Source of the DNA: Clostridiales bacterium
GTDB taxonomy: Bacteria; Bacillota; Clostridia; Christensenellales; CAG-138
Direction of reading: 5' to 3'
Assembly (NCBI GenBank): GCA_004558525.1
Contig: SFCQ01000014.1
Span: forward strand, 67,346 to 131,345
DNA: 64,000 nucleotides
A program made the position numbers and the translations under genes. Below the pieces are notes generated by a model. That model worked only from the letters and a program-made list of their open reading frames with translations, was not told where the DNA came from and searched no databases. Below, one piece after another: positions 127 through 60,336 of the stretch. Numbering within the stretch: position 1 is the first letter of the stretch; the number at the start of each line of letters is the position of its first letter.

Positions 127-149
127 GGAGAAGGTAGCCCTTCTCCTTT
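127..149 (+). terminator. intrinsic terminator-like hairpin
   Basis: ggagaagg-tagc-ccttctcc followed by ttt. It lies immediately upstream of repeat copy 1. Confidence 0.5.
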
Positions 150-150
150 C

Positions 151-300
151 AGCCTGTCAAAAAAGCCAGTCAACGACTGGTTTTTTGACAGACTACGAAA
201 CCCTAAACGTTTTCATCCGTTCTGACGTGCATGCCGTCAGAGTCGGAATTAGCTTAAGGGGCAGCCGCCCCTTAACAACCCCATAGTTTTTTGACAGGCT
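151..300 (+). repeat. structured intergenic repeat, copy 1 (short variant lacking the second hairpin module)
   Basis: Perfect 14-bp terminal inverted repeat: agcctgtcaaaaaa at 151-164 and ttttttgacaggct at 287-300. It shares the modules gttttcatccgttctgacgtgcatgccgtcagag and cttaaggggcagccgccccttaacaacccc with the six other copies. Confidence 0.9.
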
Positions 301-347
301 GTGGGCAGCTTAGGCTGCTCTTTTTTATGTCATCACTCATATCAAAT

Positions 348-7905: not shown

Positions 7906-8451
7906 ATGAAATACCGTTGCAGCGTTTGTGGTTATATCCATGAAGGAAACCAGCCGCCCGAGTTTTGCCCCCAGTGCAAAGCTCCTGCTTCAAAGTTTGT
8001 TCCCGTTGAGGAAAACAAGCTTGATTGGGCTGCCGAGCATGTTGTCGGCGTAGCCAAGGGCGTTGATCCTGAAATAATTGAAGGTCTGCGCGCCAACTTT
8101 AACGGCGAATGTACCGAAGTCGGCATGTATCTTGCCATGGCCAGGGTCGCCCATCGTGAAGGCTATCCCGAGATCGGTCTTTATTGGGAAAAGGCTGCAT
8201 ATGAAGAAGCCGAGCATGCTGCCAAGTTTGCCGAGCTTCTTGGCGAAGTAGTCACGGACAGCACCAGGAAAAACCTTGAAATGCGCGTAGCGGCTGAAAA
8301 CGGCGCTACTCTCGGCAAGACCGAGCTTGCTAAAAAGGCCAAGGCGCTCAATCTTGACGCCATACATGACACCGTGCACGAGATGGCCCGCGACGAGGCC
8401 CGGCACGGCAAGGCCTTCGAAGGCCTGCTGAAGCGGTACTTCGGCGAATAA
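7906..8451 (+). CDS. reverse rubrerythrin (N-terminal rubredoxin-like CxxC..CxxC domain plus C-terminal ferritin-like di-iron domain)
   Basis: CSVCGY...CPQCK at the N-terminus, then the ExxH motifs EEAEH and DEARH. RBS aggagg. Confidence 0.88.
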
Positions 8452-8470: not shown

Positions 8471-8626
8471 ATGACTAAGTACAAATGCCCCTGCGGCTAT
8501 GAATACGATCCTGCCGTCGGTGATCCCGATAACGGCATTGCTCCCGGAACTGCCTGGGAAGATCTGCCCGAAGATTGGGTATGCCCCATCTGCGGCCTGA
8601 GCAAAGACGCTTTTGTCGAGGCGTAA
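8471..8626 (+). CDS. rubredoxin
   Basis: 51-codon ORF absent from the track because it is under 60 aa: [51 protein letters not shown]. It has the classic CxC...CPxCG rubredoxin pattern. RBS aaggag lies 8 nt upstream. Confidence 0.85.
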
Positions 8627-8652
8627 AGCTTGGACTATATGTGCAAGGCCTC

Positions 8653-8787
8653 AAAAAAGCGCAAAAGGCGTTAACAAATCCTCTTCTATCATTAAATGAC
8701 GCTTGCAGCATTAAGCGCGATATGTGCCGATGCGAGGCTCGCCACGGCAAGGCCTTCAAAGGCCTGCTGAAGAGATACTTCAAGTGA
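8653..8787 (+). pseudogene. relic of a rubrerythrin 3' end (about 45 codons, no start codon)
   Basis: It translates to ...[44 protein letters not shown], compared with ...[39 protein letters not shown] for the real gene. The last 48 nt match the intact gene at 42 of 48 positions. Confidence 0.55.
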
Positions 8788-8802: not shown

Positions 8803-8825
8803 GGGGGCAAGCTATTGCCCCCTTT
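8803..8825 (+). terminator. intrinsic terminator
   Basis: gggggcaa-gcta-ttgccccc followed by ttt. Repeat copy 2 begins 1 nt later. Confidence 0.6.
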
Positions 8826-8826
8826 C

Positions 8827-9025
8827 AGAGTGTCGAAAAAGTGGCTATTCGCCACTTTTTCGAGTTTTCACAGGTTTTGCCTCTCGTATTAGCTCCCGGG
8901 CGGCAAAACCCGCAAGGTACGAAAACCTGAAGGTTTTCATCCGTTCTGACGTGCATACCGTCAGAGCCGGAATAAAGCTTAAGGGGCAGCCGCCCCTTAA
9001 CAACCCCAAGGTTTATCGATAGGCT
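8827..9025 (+). repeat. structured intergenic repeat, copy 2 (full length)
   Basis: agagtgtcgaaaaagtggc...gccactttttcgag / ggttttgcc...ggcaaaaccc / gaaaacc-tgaa-ggttttc / tctgacg-tgcatac-cgtcaga / ttaaggggc-agcc-gccccttaa / ...gtttatcgataggct. Confidence 0.92.
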
Positions 9026-9079
9026 GATTTATTATAATATGCCGTTTTGGGTTATTTTTATAAAATAGGTATTCCATTT

Positions 9080-9324: not shown

Positions 9325-9353
9325 TTGACTGCTGCCTATTGCTCGGATATAAT
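9325..9353 (+). promoter_or_regulatory. near-consensus sigma-A promoter for tRNA-Leu
   Basis: TTGACT, 17 nt spacer, TATAAT. The tRNA starts 12 nt downstream. Confidence 0.6.
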
Positions 9354-9364
9354 AGACGAGGTGC

Positions 9365-9447
9365 GCGGCTGTGGTGGAACGGCATACACAGCGGACTTAA
9401 AATCCGCCGGCGAAAGCTTGCGAGTTCAAATCTCGCCAGCCGCACCA
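9365..9447 (+). tRNA. tRNA-Leu (anticodon UAA), class II with a long variable arm and encoded CCA
   Basis: Manual fold: acceptor gcggctg/cagccgc, D stem gtg/cac, anticodon stem gcgga/tccgc with loop cTTAAaa, 12-nt variable arm, T arm gcgag-ttcaaat-ctcgc, discriminator a, then cca. Confidence 0.85.
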
Positions 9448-11248: not shown

Positions 11249-11289
11249 TTGAACATAGCGGAGCAAAACGAACCCGCTATGCTTAGGGC

Positions 11290-11488
11290 AGTATGTCGAA
11301 AAACCCAAATGACGTTAAGTGGCCGCAGCCTCCTTGAACTTTATTCCGGCTCTGACGGTATGCACGTCAGAACGGATGAAAACCATCAGGTTTTCATACT
11401 ATTTGGGGTTTGCCGCCCGGGAGCATAAGCGCGAGCCAAAACCCGTAGCTTTCGAAAAAGCGGCGCTCAGCCGCTTTTTCGACATTCC
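11290..11488 (-). repeat. structured intergenic repeat, copy 3 (full length, most divergent)
   Basis: Same module order as the other copies, read on the minus strand. The hairpin-1 stem is gcggc/gccgc instead of gtggc/gccac. It lies between the convergent cysE and permease genes. Confidence 0.85.
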
Positions 11489-11516
11489 AAAAGGGACCGC
11501 CTGGGCAGTCCCTTTG
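11489..11516 (-). terminator. intrinsic terminator of the permease gene
   Basis: On the minus strand: gggac-tgcccaggcg-gtccc followed by tttt. It abuts repeat copy 3. Confidence 0.55.
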
Positions 11517-23542: not shown

Positions 23543-23569
23543 AAGGAGCGGGGCTGCGCCCGCTCCTTT
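23543..23569 (+). terminator. intrinsic terminator of the SGNH hydrolase gene
   Basis: aaggagcggg-gctgcg-cccgctcctt followed by t. The same 24 nt recur at 23770-23793, on the other side of repeat copy 4. Confidence 0.6.
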
Positions 23570-23769
23570 GCCTGTCGATAAGCTTTGGGGTTGTTAAGGG
23601 GCGCCTGCCCCTTAAGCTAATTCCAGCTCTGACGGCATGTGCGTCAGAACGGATGAAAACCTTTTGGTTTTCGTACTTTGCGGGTTTTGCCGCCCGGGAG
23701 CGTGAGCGAGAGGCAAAACCCGTAAAAGCTCGAAAAAGTGGCGACCAGCCACTTTTTCGACACTCTCAT
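23570..23769 (-). repeat. structured intergenic repeat, copy 4 (full length)
   Basis: On the plus strand it runs from gcctgtcgataagc... to ...ctttttcgacactctcat. All five hairpin modules are present. Confidence 0.92.
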
Positions 23770-24016
23770 GAGCGGGGCTGCGCCCGCTCCTTTCACACTA
23801 TAACATGCGCAGAAATGCAGTTTAAGAAGCTCATCTTCGCAGGCGCCGTAGGAAGCCTTGTCCACAGGTTCAGCGTTGGCAATACACCTGCGCAAGAAGC
23901 ACCGTTATTCCAGACATGATACTGAAAATAGCCAAAAGCAACTGACAGCTGATGTACTAAAAGGCCCTGCGCCATGCTTTTTTGCATAGCACAGGGCTTT
24001 AAGCTTTTGCGCTTGC

Positions 24017-35424: not shown

Positions 35425-35461
35425 TCAACTTGCAATAAAAAGCCGCATTAAGGTGCGGCAC

Positions 35462-35656
35462 AGCCTGTCGATAAACCCTGGGGTTGTTAAGGGGCGGCTG
35501 CCCCTTAAGCTTTATTCCGGCTCTGACGGCATGCACGTCAGAACGGATAAAAACCTTCAGGTTTTCGTACCTTGCGGGTTTTGCCGCCCGGGAGCTAATG
35601 CGAGAGGCAAAACCCGTGAAAACTCGAAAAAGTGGCGTTCAGCCACTTATCGAGCC
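35462..35656 (-). repeat. structured intergenic repeat, copy 5 (its hairpin-1 end overlaps the ysnB-like CDS 3' end)
   Basis: On the plus strand it runs from agcctgtcgataaaccc... to ...gccacttatcgagcc. All modules are present. The terminal motif is altered (cgataag instead of cgaaaaag). Confidence 0.9.
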
Positions 35657-36077
35657 TTGCAAAGCTTTTTGCGCGGCCGTTCCTCGGCGCCGACGGGCTG
35701 CCCGGGCATATCAGCTGCACGCCGGCCATGTATTCTATTTCAGACACATGGGTATGCCCGTATAAAGCGGCGCAGCAGCCAAGCTCCTGAGCCCTCAGCG
35801 CGAGCCTGAGTCTATCATAGCTTACGGCAAACGTATGCCCGTGCGCGATAAGCAGCTTTGCTCCGGCCAGGTTAATCGCCATTTCCGCCGGTATGTCGCC
35901 CGCATCGCAATTTCCCTTCACTCTGTACGCCGGCTTGTTTGATTCCATTTCAAGCCAGTCCGCTTCCCTTTGCCCGTCGCCAAGGAAAATCCACGCTTCC
36001 GCTTCCTCAAGCTTCCTGTATGCCTGCTCAGCCGCGAACACATCGCCGTGGGTATCGCTCAATACTCCAACTATCAT
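35595..36077 (-). CDS. YfcE/YsnB-type metallophosphoesterase (MJ0936 family) whose last ~20 codons are repeat-derived
   Basis: SDTHGD, GDG, GNCD, HGH and GHTH motifs. After ...PGSPSAPRNGRAKSFA the reading frame runs into repeat copy 5 (RLDKWLNATFSSFHGFCLSH*). Confidence 0.8.
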   Translation of the reverse strand: MIVGVLSDTHGDVFAAEQAYRKLEEAEAWIFLGDGQREADWLEMESNKPAYRVKGNCDAGDIPAEMAINLAGAKLLIAHGHTFAVSYDRLRLALRAQELGCCAALYGHTHVSEIEYMAGVQLICPGSPSAPRNGRAKSFARLDKWLNATFSSFHGFCLSH

Positions 36078-46918: not shown

Positions 46919-46947
46919 TTGCAATAGACGGGAGTTTTCAATATAAT
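46919..46947 (+). promoter_or_regulatory. near-consensus sigma-A promoter for queA-tgt
   Basis: TTGCAA, 17 nt spacer, TATAAT. Confidence 0.5.
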
Positions 46948-46979
46948 AAAGCCACGCGCAAACGGAGGAAACTGATAGA

Positions 46980-49609
<2,630 letters not shown>

Positions 49610-57845: not shown

Positions 57846-57872
57846 CACAAAAAGCGGGCGTCAGCCCGCTTT

Positions 57873-58027
57873 AGAGTGTCAAAAAAGTGGCTGAACGCCA
57901 CTTTTTTGAGTTTTACGGGTTTTGCCTCTCGCATTCGCTCCCGGGCGGCAAAACCCGCAAAGTACGAAAACGGAATAAAGCTTAAGGGGCAGCCGCCCCT
58001 TAACAACCCCATGGTTTATCGACAAGC
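57873..58027 (+). repeat. structured intergenic repeat, copy 6 (42-nt internal deletion variant)
   Basis: It runs from agagtgtcaaaaaagtggc... to ...ggtttatcgacaagc. It lacks the block ctgaaggtttt.atccgttctgacgtgcatgccgtcagagcc that is present in the full copies. Confidence 0.9.
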
Positions 58028-58051
58028 AAAAGCGGGCTAACGCCCGCTTTT
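58028..58051 (-). terminator. intrinsic terminator of the PrsA-like gene
   Basis: aaaagcgggc-taac-gcccgctttt, a symmetric A-tract/stem/T-tract. A near-identical hairpin lies at 57850-57872, on the other side of repeat copy 6. Confidence 0.6.
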
Positions 58052-59968: not shown

Positions 59969-60009
59969 TGCATCGCATATTTATCGGGCTGCCATACGCA
60001 GCCTGTTTG

Positions 60010-60207
60010 AGAGTGTCGAAAAAGTGGCTATTCGCCACTTTTTCGAGTTTTCACAGGTTTTGTCTCTCGCTCACGCTCCCGGGCGGCAAAAGTCGCAAGG
60101 TACAAAAACCTCTGGGTTTTCATCCGTTCTGACGTGCATGCCGTCAGAGCCGGAATCTGCTTAAGGGGCAGCCGTCCCTTAACAACCCCAGGGTTTTTCG
60201 ACAGGCT
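60010..60207 (+). repeat. structured intergenic repeat, copy 7 (full length)
   Basis: It runs from agagtgtcgaaaaagtggctattcgccactttttcgag... to ...gggtttttcgacaggct. It lies between pgsA and pth. Confidence 0.92.
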
Positions 60208-60336
60208 GCTGTTTTTTATGTCTTTTCTGCCTTGTGCGCAGGAAGGAATGGGTTTATAATTAGCTTTGCTACCCCCATGCTGAACGGCATGAGGGCATAG
60301 TTGCGTACAAAGAGAATAGTGCGGAGGCTTCTTAAT

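Follow-up and report, generated by a model that had tools for sequence, protein, structure and literature searches.

A mobile non-coding element of gut Clostridia flanked by duplicated terminator hairpins

We analysed a 64,000-nt stretch of contig SFCQ01000014.1 from a Clostridiales bacterium (hereafter, the window), in which seven non-coding elements of about 200 bp are dispersed (7 per 64 kb). The element under study, copy 2, is located downstream of a rubrerythrin-like gene. These elements belong to a real and active superfamily of miniature inverted-repeat transposable elements, or MITEs, of gut Clostridia. They are mobile, they are inserted at the hairpins of intrinsic terminators, and the target duplication on their two sides is equal to the hairpin. 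The element is very probably a non-autonomous MITE that is moved by a transposase acting in trans, which selects a terminator hairpin by its DNA shape and duplicates the hairpin as a whole; for this enzyme we infer a DDE chemistry and a family, as described below. An initial annotation of the window had proposed a non-autonomous mobile element that targets terminators, and this proposal is supported by further copies, by empty sites and by pairing in a larger alignment. The annotation did not include the whole terminator hairpin duplicated on both sides of the element.

Empty and occupied insertion sites

Empty sites were searched for in contigs that encode exactly the same flanking proteins as the window sites. 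Empty alleles were present in strains of the same species at two of the seven insertion sites (copies 4 and 5). At the copy-4 site, the intergenic gap is 269 nt in three assemblies and 493 nt in seven. In the alignment, the empty allele consists of one hairpin, whereas the occupied allele consists of the hairpin, the 200-nt element and the hairpin again, which makes a 24-nt duplication. The 1.5-kb flanks of the empty and occupied strains diverge by 0.3–0.5% at this site. At the copy-5 site, the sequence is 221 nt shorter in three assemblies, which contain TGCCGCACCTTGATGCGGCT once, compared with twice in the occupied strains; the target duplication here is the 20-nt resident terminator hairpin. 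Occupied-versus-empty polymorphism thus exists within the species, with exact target duplications at both sites, and the same insertions were found again in many independent assemblies, together with precise empty alleles.

The element at the copy-4 site of other strains (L026–L033, 3818–4017) differs in patches, by up to 12 of 200 nt (up to 6%). Set against the divergence of the flanks, such variation points to gene conversion among copies, or to one hairpin having been targeted repeatedly. In L018 (2600–2900), the copy-7 element has a different left flank, which encodes M20 peptidase and OTCase genes. In L006 (829–1026), the left flank of window copy 7 is joined to the right flank of a copy in L011 (7206–7403). 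The flanks in L018 and L006 represent either rearrangements or chimeric assemblies across element copies.

Target duplications of hairpin size

We examined 101 distinct elements, among the matches listed, that are bounded by the inverted termini 5'-CAGAGTGTCRAAAAAG…TTTTTCGACAGNCTG-3' and have both flanks available. Abutting direct repeats of 13–44 nt (median about 24) are present in 67 of them, and 65 of these 67 repeats fold as hairpins (≤ −4 kcal/mol). When left flanks were paired with the right flanks of other elements as a control, repeats appeared in 0 of 101. The ends of the repeats lie at the feet of the stems, with 0–1 unpaired nt at the 5' end in 52 of 66 and at the 3' end in 55 of 66. 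The duplicated hairpins have a median stem of 9 bp and a median loop of 4 nt and are A-rich upstream and T-rich downstream, contexts that are typical of intrinsic terminators. Each duplication has its own sequence, and no tetra- or pentanucleotide target is conserved. The lengths of the duplications are continuous and track the size of each hairpin, without discrete classes.

Among sites of the family that includes copy 2 (family A, see below), 25 of 43 have a flanking direct repeat of 13–33 nt, and hairpins of 21–33 nt stand on both sides of copies in other genomes (L002, L008, L009, L011 and L012). Nearly all family-A sites (39 of 42) lie within 200 nt of the 3' end of a gene; a co-oriented upstream gene ends within 200 nt at 33 of the 42 sites, and a convergent gene is found at 27. 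The orientation of the element is weakly biased with respect to the polarity of the terminator. The adjacency of the element to a GC-rich hairpin, already pointed out in the initial annotation, is real in the flank comparisons and is explained by the insertion mechanism.

Termini and related MITE families

The limits of the terminal inverted repeats (15–16 nt, 5'-CAGAGTGTCRAAAAA…TTTTTCGACAGNCTG-3') were set by the empty sites and the flanking repeats. The inverted repeat had been recognized before, and its ends are now placed 1 nt further out on each side than first described (5'-C/AGAG…CT/G-3', with slashes at the earlier ends). C precedes AGAG in 80 of the 101 elements and G follows CT in 72, giving the termini CAG…CTG.

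Scans of species-representative genomes and metagenomes for the 18-nt left terminus AGAGTGTCRAAAAAGTGG yielded at least 96 genome loci and at least 120 metagenome loci, and the matches listed in both scans are almost exclusively MITEs. At least five MITE families (A–E) with no relation between their interiors share these termini, as do mini-elements. Family A comprises the element under study, families B and C are abundant in the metagenome-assembled genome (MAG) SFGO01, and family D is AT-rich. Families B, C, D and E are 110–390 bp long and have unrelated hairpin-rich interiors, and many of them are flanked by duplicated hairpins (L110, L112, L120, L135, L149, L160, L172 and L180, in SFGO01 and other MAGs; L104, L111, L121 and L126; L165 and L175). 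The mini-elements, of 41–44 nt, consist only of the left terminus, a short loop and the right terminus (Table 1). One set of termini with many cargoes fits one transposase acting in trans. In L180, two tandem family-B copies have one hairpin in common.

The termini occur in many MAGs of uncultured Clostridia and also in the cultured isolate Flavonifractor sp. An82, which carries a diverged family-A copy. Further copies of the element are numerous among related genomes and in metagenomes. By blastn, the element had no match in plasmids or phages, and the terminus scan of viral contigs gave 47 chance matches and no element; apparent 1.4-kb repeat pairs in viral contigs were rejected because they are located within a phage structural gene. 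Some family-A variants have a hairpin-forming insertion of ~45 nt in the module-2 loop (L103, 5832–5995; L151, 7745–7990; L162, 6408–6649), and others have modules 2–4 replaced (L139, L161 and L156, 3021–3172). This modular turnover is similar to that of the pneumococcal BOX elements.

Internal hairpins and folding

The elements are 150–201 bp long and are composed wholly of hairpins. The five hairpin modules and the compensatory changes in hairpin 1, both described previously, were recovered. As single-stranded DNA, copy 2 folds with −50.3 kcal/mol (z = −8.5 versus shuffles). Covariation was evaluated in 49 distinct family-A sequences, aligned with MAFFT without fitting to a structure. Pairing in the five hairpins holds in 92% of the alignment cells, compared with 37–59% when the partners are slid; 36 of 50 pairs have changes on both sides, and the observed values were reached by 0 of 500 shuffles. 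Conserved pairing is therefore supported in this larger alignment. In the divergent subfamilies represented by L136, L155 and L174, the architecture and the module-4 loop (CG-YRCAYRY-CG) are kept while the stems are replaced, and the Flavonifractor sp. An82 copy also keeps both.

When the folding energies of the two strands were compared, the top strand was more stable in 7 of 20 cases. Because neither strand is consistently favoured, the pairing may act in DNA, RNA or both. The internal hairpins may serve transposition, or they may act as replacement terminators and RNA stabilisers. A simple terminator scan did not call hairpin 1. With its A5-stem-T5 arrangement, hairpin 1 could act as a bidirectional terminator, and, once the left hairpin copy is without its T-tract, it might restore termination.

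The conserved folding also bears on another explanation, in which the element is a structured RNA under host selection (either a small RNA in multiple copies or a stabiliser or terminator cassette of the 3' untranslated region) whose hairpins are the product and whose mobility serves only for spread. The compensatory changes, the very stable fold, the persistence of the architecture and module-4 loop in divergent subfamilies up to Flavonifractor sp. An82, and the same-direction upstream gene at 33 of 42 sites all agree with such an RNA. However, neither strand is preferred in folding, so that pairing at the DNA level is possible, the element has only a weak orientation bias with respect to terminator polarity, and no Rfam family is matched at threshold. 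Moreover, MITE families with the same termini and unrelated cargo still multiply, and empty sites exist in near-identical strains, which indicates that single copies are dispensable. We therefore regard a host-selected RNA as an improbable account of the element. The other reading in the initial annotation, a REP/BIME-like element with an effect on the 3' ends of mRNAs, is not required to explain it.

At the gathering threshold, an Rfam search of the window detected tRNA-Leu only. Permissive searches with copy 2 and eight loci of divergent families gave noise and one sub-threshold match, to TD-2 (RF03162), a multi-copy hairpin repeat of Treponema denticola and the best resemblance in Rfam (24.6 bits, with 48.7 required by the gathering threshold; E = 0.12 in a search of 301 nt; window 8828–8946, minus strand). 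Three successive minus-strand hairpins match TD-2 in order and partly in sequence (GAGUUUUGCCG…/CUGAAAAGUG…). Membership in TD-2 was rejected because the score is below the gathering score and divergent family members gave no match. TD-1 and TD-2 are multi-copy hairpin repeats that overlap as reverse complements. In view of this sub-threshold likeness, the TD-1 and TD-2 "RNA motifs" might be MITEs of a related kind.

Proposed mechanism and candidate transposase

In the mechanism that we propose, a transposase encoded elsewhere would mobilise the ~200-bp non-coding element. Its target would be the GC-rich stem-loop of an intrinsic terminator, able to extrude as a hairpin or cruciform, and the stagger would equal the length of the hairpin. 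Because of such a stagger, gap repair would duplicate the whole stem-loop and leave one copy on each side of the element.

The insertion sequences (ISs) IS1272 and TnSha1, both of the IS1182 family, target terminator hairpins whatever the sequence and usually delete the hairpin (PMC4923244, PMC5678879). In a pathway put forward by Wan et al. (PMC5678879, Fig. 13, pathway b), an extruded stem-loop would be duplicated in full if joining took place at its 5' feet, and the duplications found here follow this pattern. IS1272 was recovered from plasmid pSAP110A, and its transposase was used as the seed for 80 IS1182-family loci. The terminal repeats obtained from this family are of two types. Those of the GTCCC type (GGGGCTGTCCCAAAAGTC, with GAGGGTGTCCCAAAAGTC in L374) are identical to the left terminus of the MITE at 13 of 18 positions and to the right terminus at 11 of 18. 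The MITE terminal repeat (CAGAGTGTCGAAAAAGTG) agrees with that of L374 at 13 of 18 positions, with the GTCCC-type consensus at 11 of 18 and with IS1272 at 8 of 16; the first six positions of the IS1272 repeat GAGTCTGGGACATAAA, GAGTNT, are common to the MITE. Because of the similar terminal repeats and the known targeting of terminator hairpins by this family, a relative of the IS1182 family is the most likely enzyme. An IS1182-like transposase, which would act with a different strand-transfer geometry, is thus the best candidate.

Ends starting with CAG also occur in the ISAs1 family, whose target duplications are 8–10 bp. The ends of the Escherichia coli H-repeat are not convincingly similar to those of the MITE, and tblastn with E. 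coli YhhI (ISAs1 family) gave no match in any of the loci.

Several observations weigh against the proposed trans mobilisation and its link to the IS1182 family. The searches detected no autonomous parent in the window, in the 96 genome and 120 metagenome loci listed, in viral contigs, or in plasmids and phages, and tblastn with the IS1272 transposase gave no match in ~2.3 Mb of element-bearing loci. The likeness of the terminal repeats to those of IS1182, at 11–13 of 18 positions, is suggestive and is not proof. Among 35 IS1182-family elements with defined ends (L314–L393, Bacilli), none has a flanking repeat of ≥8 nt, so the closest family has the opposite target outcome. In addition, in approximately one-third of the elements, including window copies 1, 2, 3 and 7, no long duplication is clearly present. 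These cases could have arisen by recombination between copies, by decay or by an IS1272-like replacement pathway, and the rearranged flanks in L018 and L006, together with a loop-inverted hairpin at copy 6 (see below), indicate that rearrangement-type events occur.

The flanks of 11 of the 35 IS1182-family elements are complementary to each other over 4–8 nt, mostly with A-runs to the left and T-runs to the right, which is consistent with replacement of a terminator hairpin. In L338 (Halalkalibacter hemicellulosilyticus), an IS1182-family element has in its left flank (about 1040–1075) the palindrome AGCCTGTCGAC-TTT-GTCGACAGGCT, the arms of which are the first 10 nt of the MITE right terminus. 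This may be a coincidence or a similar mini-element in a Bacillus relative.

Pfam scans of 10 candidate open reading frames (ORFs) of the window detected no transposase, in agreement with the earlier view of this region, and related contigs that cover other window regions contain housekeeping genes only. For the parent search, we looked in the loci from the terminus scans for inverted terminus pairs 0.9–3.5 kb apart that enclose a long ORF. The candidates were spurious, one being an archaeal family-B DNA polymerase. The longer families C and D were rejected as parents because they are MITEs of 275–390 bp.

A further-reaching version of the mechanism is possible, although we put it forward tentatively. 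Structure-guided DDE transposition would capture an extruded terminator hairpin or cruciform, join at its 5' feet and thereby copy whole terminators genome-wide. The covarying cargo of family A would then perhaps be functional, as a mobile terminator, an RNA-stability cassette or a transposition-control RNA, and not junk, and the enzyme would perhaps represent a new subgroup or family.

The MITE might instead depend on another DDE family with long or variable duplications, namely IS1202 (5–6, 16–17 or 27–28 bp) or IS1634/IS1549 (8–514 bp). Long duplications are a hallmark of the IS1202 family (bioRxiv 10.1101/2022.12.17.520857), and IS1634 and IS1549 make duplications of variable length by an unknown mechanism (PMC2266710). 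The element also has TGTC four bases in from its end, and IS1202 repeats begin with TGT. However, the empty sites indicate that the inserted DNA starts with CAGAG… and not with TGT, and the termini resemble IS1182-family repeats instead. The duplications form a continuum that follows the hairpin and not discrete classes, and the texts consulted on these families describe no preference for a target structure. We consider a parent in either family unlikely.

The initial annotation had also suggested a palindrome-associated (PATE) or REP/BIME-like element, with a possible Y1 TnpA/TnpB parent of the IS200/IS605 type. In this reading, a Y1 HUH transposase (TnpA or RAYT) that acts on single-stranded hairpins would move it. 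The abundance of hairpins in the element suits this idea, and the preference for hairpin targets recalls single-strand transposition. IS200/IS605 elements and REPINs insert 3' of a fixed short motif and are not known to have terminal inverted repeats or target duplications. Because the element has both, with inverted repeats of 15–16 nt, and because the empty-site comparisons contradict the idea and the target offers no conserved tetra- or pentanucleotide, each duplication being different, a parent of this type is most unlikely. Segmental duplications or assembly artefacts in place of independent insertions, as might be suspected from the many copies at contig ends in MAGs and from the possibly chimeric L006, are refuted by the unrelated flanks of the seven window copies, the precise empty alleles that accompany the same insertions in many independent assemblies, and the 101 distinct flank pairs.

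Copies in the window and their genomic setting

The seven copies were found with the same coordinates and strands by a repeat search, by alignment, by nhmmer and by a covariance-model search (Table 1). A 23-nt core motif of the element has 10 matches in the window, compared with 0 expected. The previous description of the copies as near-identical was overstated, since their gapless identity to the reference copy in the repeat search is 63–95%, copy 3 being the most divergent. Their flanks are mutually unrelated. The placement of all copies between genes holds except for copy 5, which an 89-nt deletion has fused to the upstream phosphoesterase ORF.

Table 1. Element copies, adjacent hairpins and mini-elements (positions in the window unless a locus is named)
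Feature	Position	Strand	Description
Terminator-like hairpin GGAGAAGG-tagc-CCTTCTCC	127–146	+	Directly 5' of copy 1; no duplicate on the other side
Copy 1	150–301	+	Deletion variant without module 2; terminal repeats perfect (AGCCTGTCAAAAAA)
Copy 1, first 44 nt	151–194	+	Complete terminus-loop-terminus mini-element
Terminator hairpin GGGGGCAAGCTATTGCCCCC	8803–8822	+	Belongs to upstream rubrerythrin-like gene; abuts copy 2; no second copy on the 3' side
Copy 2 (element under study)	8826–9026	+	Full-length family A; five hairpin modules; termini CAGAGTGTCG…CGATAGGCTG
Copy 3	11289–11489	-	Most divergent full-length copy; hairpin-1 stem GCGGC/GCCGC
Right 24-nt target duplication	23546–23569	-	Flanks copy 4; identical to left; hairpin single in empty-site strains
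Copy 4	23570–23769	-	Boundaries exact from empty sites in other strains
Left 24-nt target duplication AAAGGAGCGGGCGCAGCCCCGCTC	23770–23793	-	Terminator hairpin; 5' of copy 4
Surviving right duplication of copy 5	35441–35459	-	GCCGCACCTTAATGCGGCT hairpin, then T-run; on both sides in other occupied strains, once in empty strains
Copy 5	35462–35656	-	5'-truncated by 89-nt deletion; left hairpin copy and most of 5' terminal repeat lost
Hairpin AAAAGCGGGC-GTCA-GCCCGCTTT	57850–57872	+	5' of copy 6
Copy 6	57873–58027	+	42-nt internal deletion (part of module 3, all of module 4)
Hairpin AAAAGCGGGC-TAAC-GCCCGCTTTT	58028–58051	+	3' of copy 6; stem same as 5' hairpin
Copy 7	60009–60208	+	Full-length; upstream terminator hairpin 59986–60003; possible short flanking repeat CTGTTT only
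Mini-elements	L013 2412–2452; L101 7910–7951; L107 2556–2596; L190 1693–1735		Left terminus, short loop, right terminus

The deletion at copy 5 (window 35595–35745, minus strand) was defined by comparison with an occupied locus (L036, 5540–5640). It extends from the 3' end of a Metallophos_2 phosphoesterase gene into the 5' terminal repeat. As a result, the phosphoesterase ORF (35595–36077, minus strand) now terminates within the element and gains an element-encoded tail (160 amino acids versus 156). At the left breakpoint, the sequence GCTCGATA is similar to the terminal repeat TGTCGA(A/T)A.

The 42-nt deletion noted earlier in copy 6 is present and specific to the window strain, since other strains have a full-length element at this site. 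The loops of the hairpins on the two sides of copy 6 are GTCA and TAAC, which are reverse complements of each other except at one position. The two hairpins represent a diverged or loop-inverted duplication; the loop may have been inverted within a duplicated palindrome.

The window has a G+C content of ~51% and is a housekeeping region of the genome of a spore-forming member of the Clostridia, encoding UvrAB, Lon, ClpXP, trigger factor, gyrase, Pth, Mfd, SpoIIP and Gpr. The public contigs nearest to it come from MAGs of uncultured Oscillospiraceae/Clostridia and from gut assemblies of pigs and humans. Copy 2 sits after the second of two adjacent rubrerythrin-like genes (7906–8451 and about 8480–8787), a C-terminal segment of which is 82% identical (repeat 8376–8442/8715–8781). 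Copy 2 is followed, 340 nt downstream, by a tRNA-Leu(TAA) that has a long variable arm (9365–9447); a strong promoter-like site is located at 9325–9353. Elsewhere, the long minus-strand ORFs at 46938–49327 (423 and 433 amino acids) have no Pfam match, and the local skew points to the plus-strand ORFs that overlap them (46980–48002 and 47909–49138) as the real genes.

Significance and comparison with known systems

The 67 repeat-flanked insertions and two exact empty alleles provide natural evidence for targets that are chosen by structure and for whole-stem-loop duplication, which for IS1272 has so far been proposed only as a possible pathway. Target choice by DNA shape and not by sequence is unusual. 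The elements are dense in abundant uncultured gut Clostridia, where they break assemblies, drive rearrangements and deletions beside genes, and remodel 3' ends by doubling terminators. Their termini offer a simple handle with which the whole MITE superfamily can be annotated and the transposase found. ISfinder reportedly lists direct repeats of 0–60 bp for IS1182, and hairpin-length duplications may help explain the very variable values given for this family.

In several respects, the element is similar to other bacterial MITEs (Correia, RUP, BOX, ERIC, Chunjie and others), which are likewise small, non-coding, multi-copy, intergenic and strongly folded and have inverted termini and a target duplication; BOX also has modular deletion and insertion variants. 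MITEs described so far have short target duplications of a fixed length, whereas those found here are defined by the target stem-loop. A keyword search of a 2024 review of prokaryotic MITEs revealed neither a hairpin-sized target duplication nor a link to IS1182. SPRITE is another Firmicute repeat that is enriched at gene 3' ends and between convergent genes and has a terminator-like hairpin (PMC3049150). In a comparison made by description, however, SPRITE has only AAAA/TTTT ends and no known target duplication or empty sites.

Among DDE elements, the IS1202 family stands out by unusually long target duplications and IS1634/IS1549 by variable ones. They differ from the MITE in their termini, TGT in IS1202 compared with the CAG start found here, and no dependence on hairpins has been described for them. 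IS1272 and TnSha1 are autonomous elements of 1.7–2 kb that encode a DUF772 + DDE_Tnp_1_6 transposase, in clear contrast to a non-coding 200-bp MITE without a linked transposase. In these two elements and the 35 sampled relatives the hairpin is deleted or replaced, whereas the MITE duplicates it. Nevertheless, the IS1182 family and the MITE are alike in that hairpins and terminators are targeted by their structure, without specificity for primary sequence.

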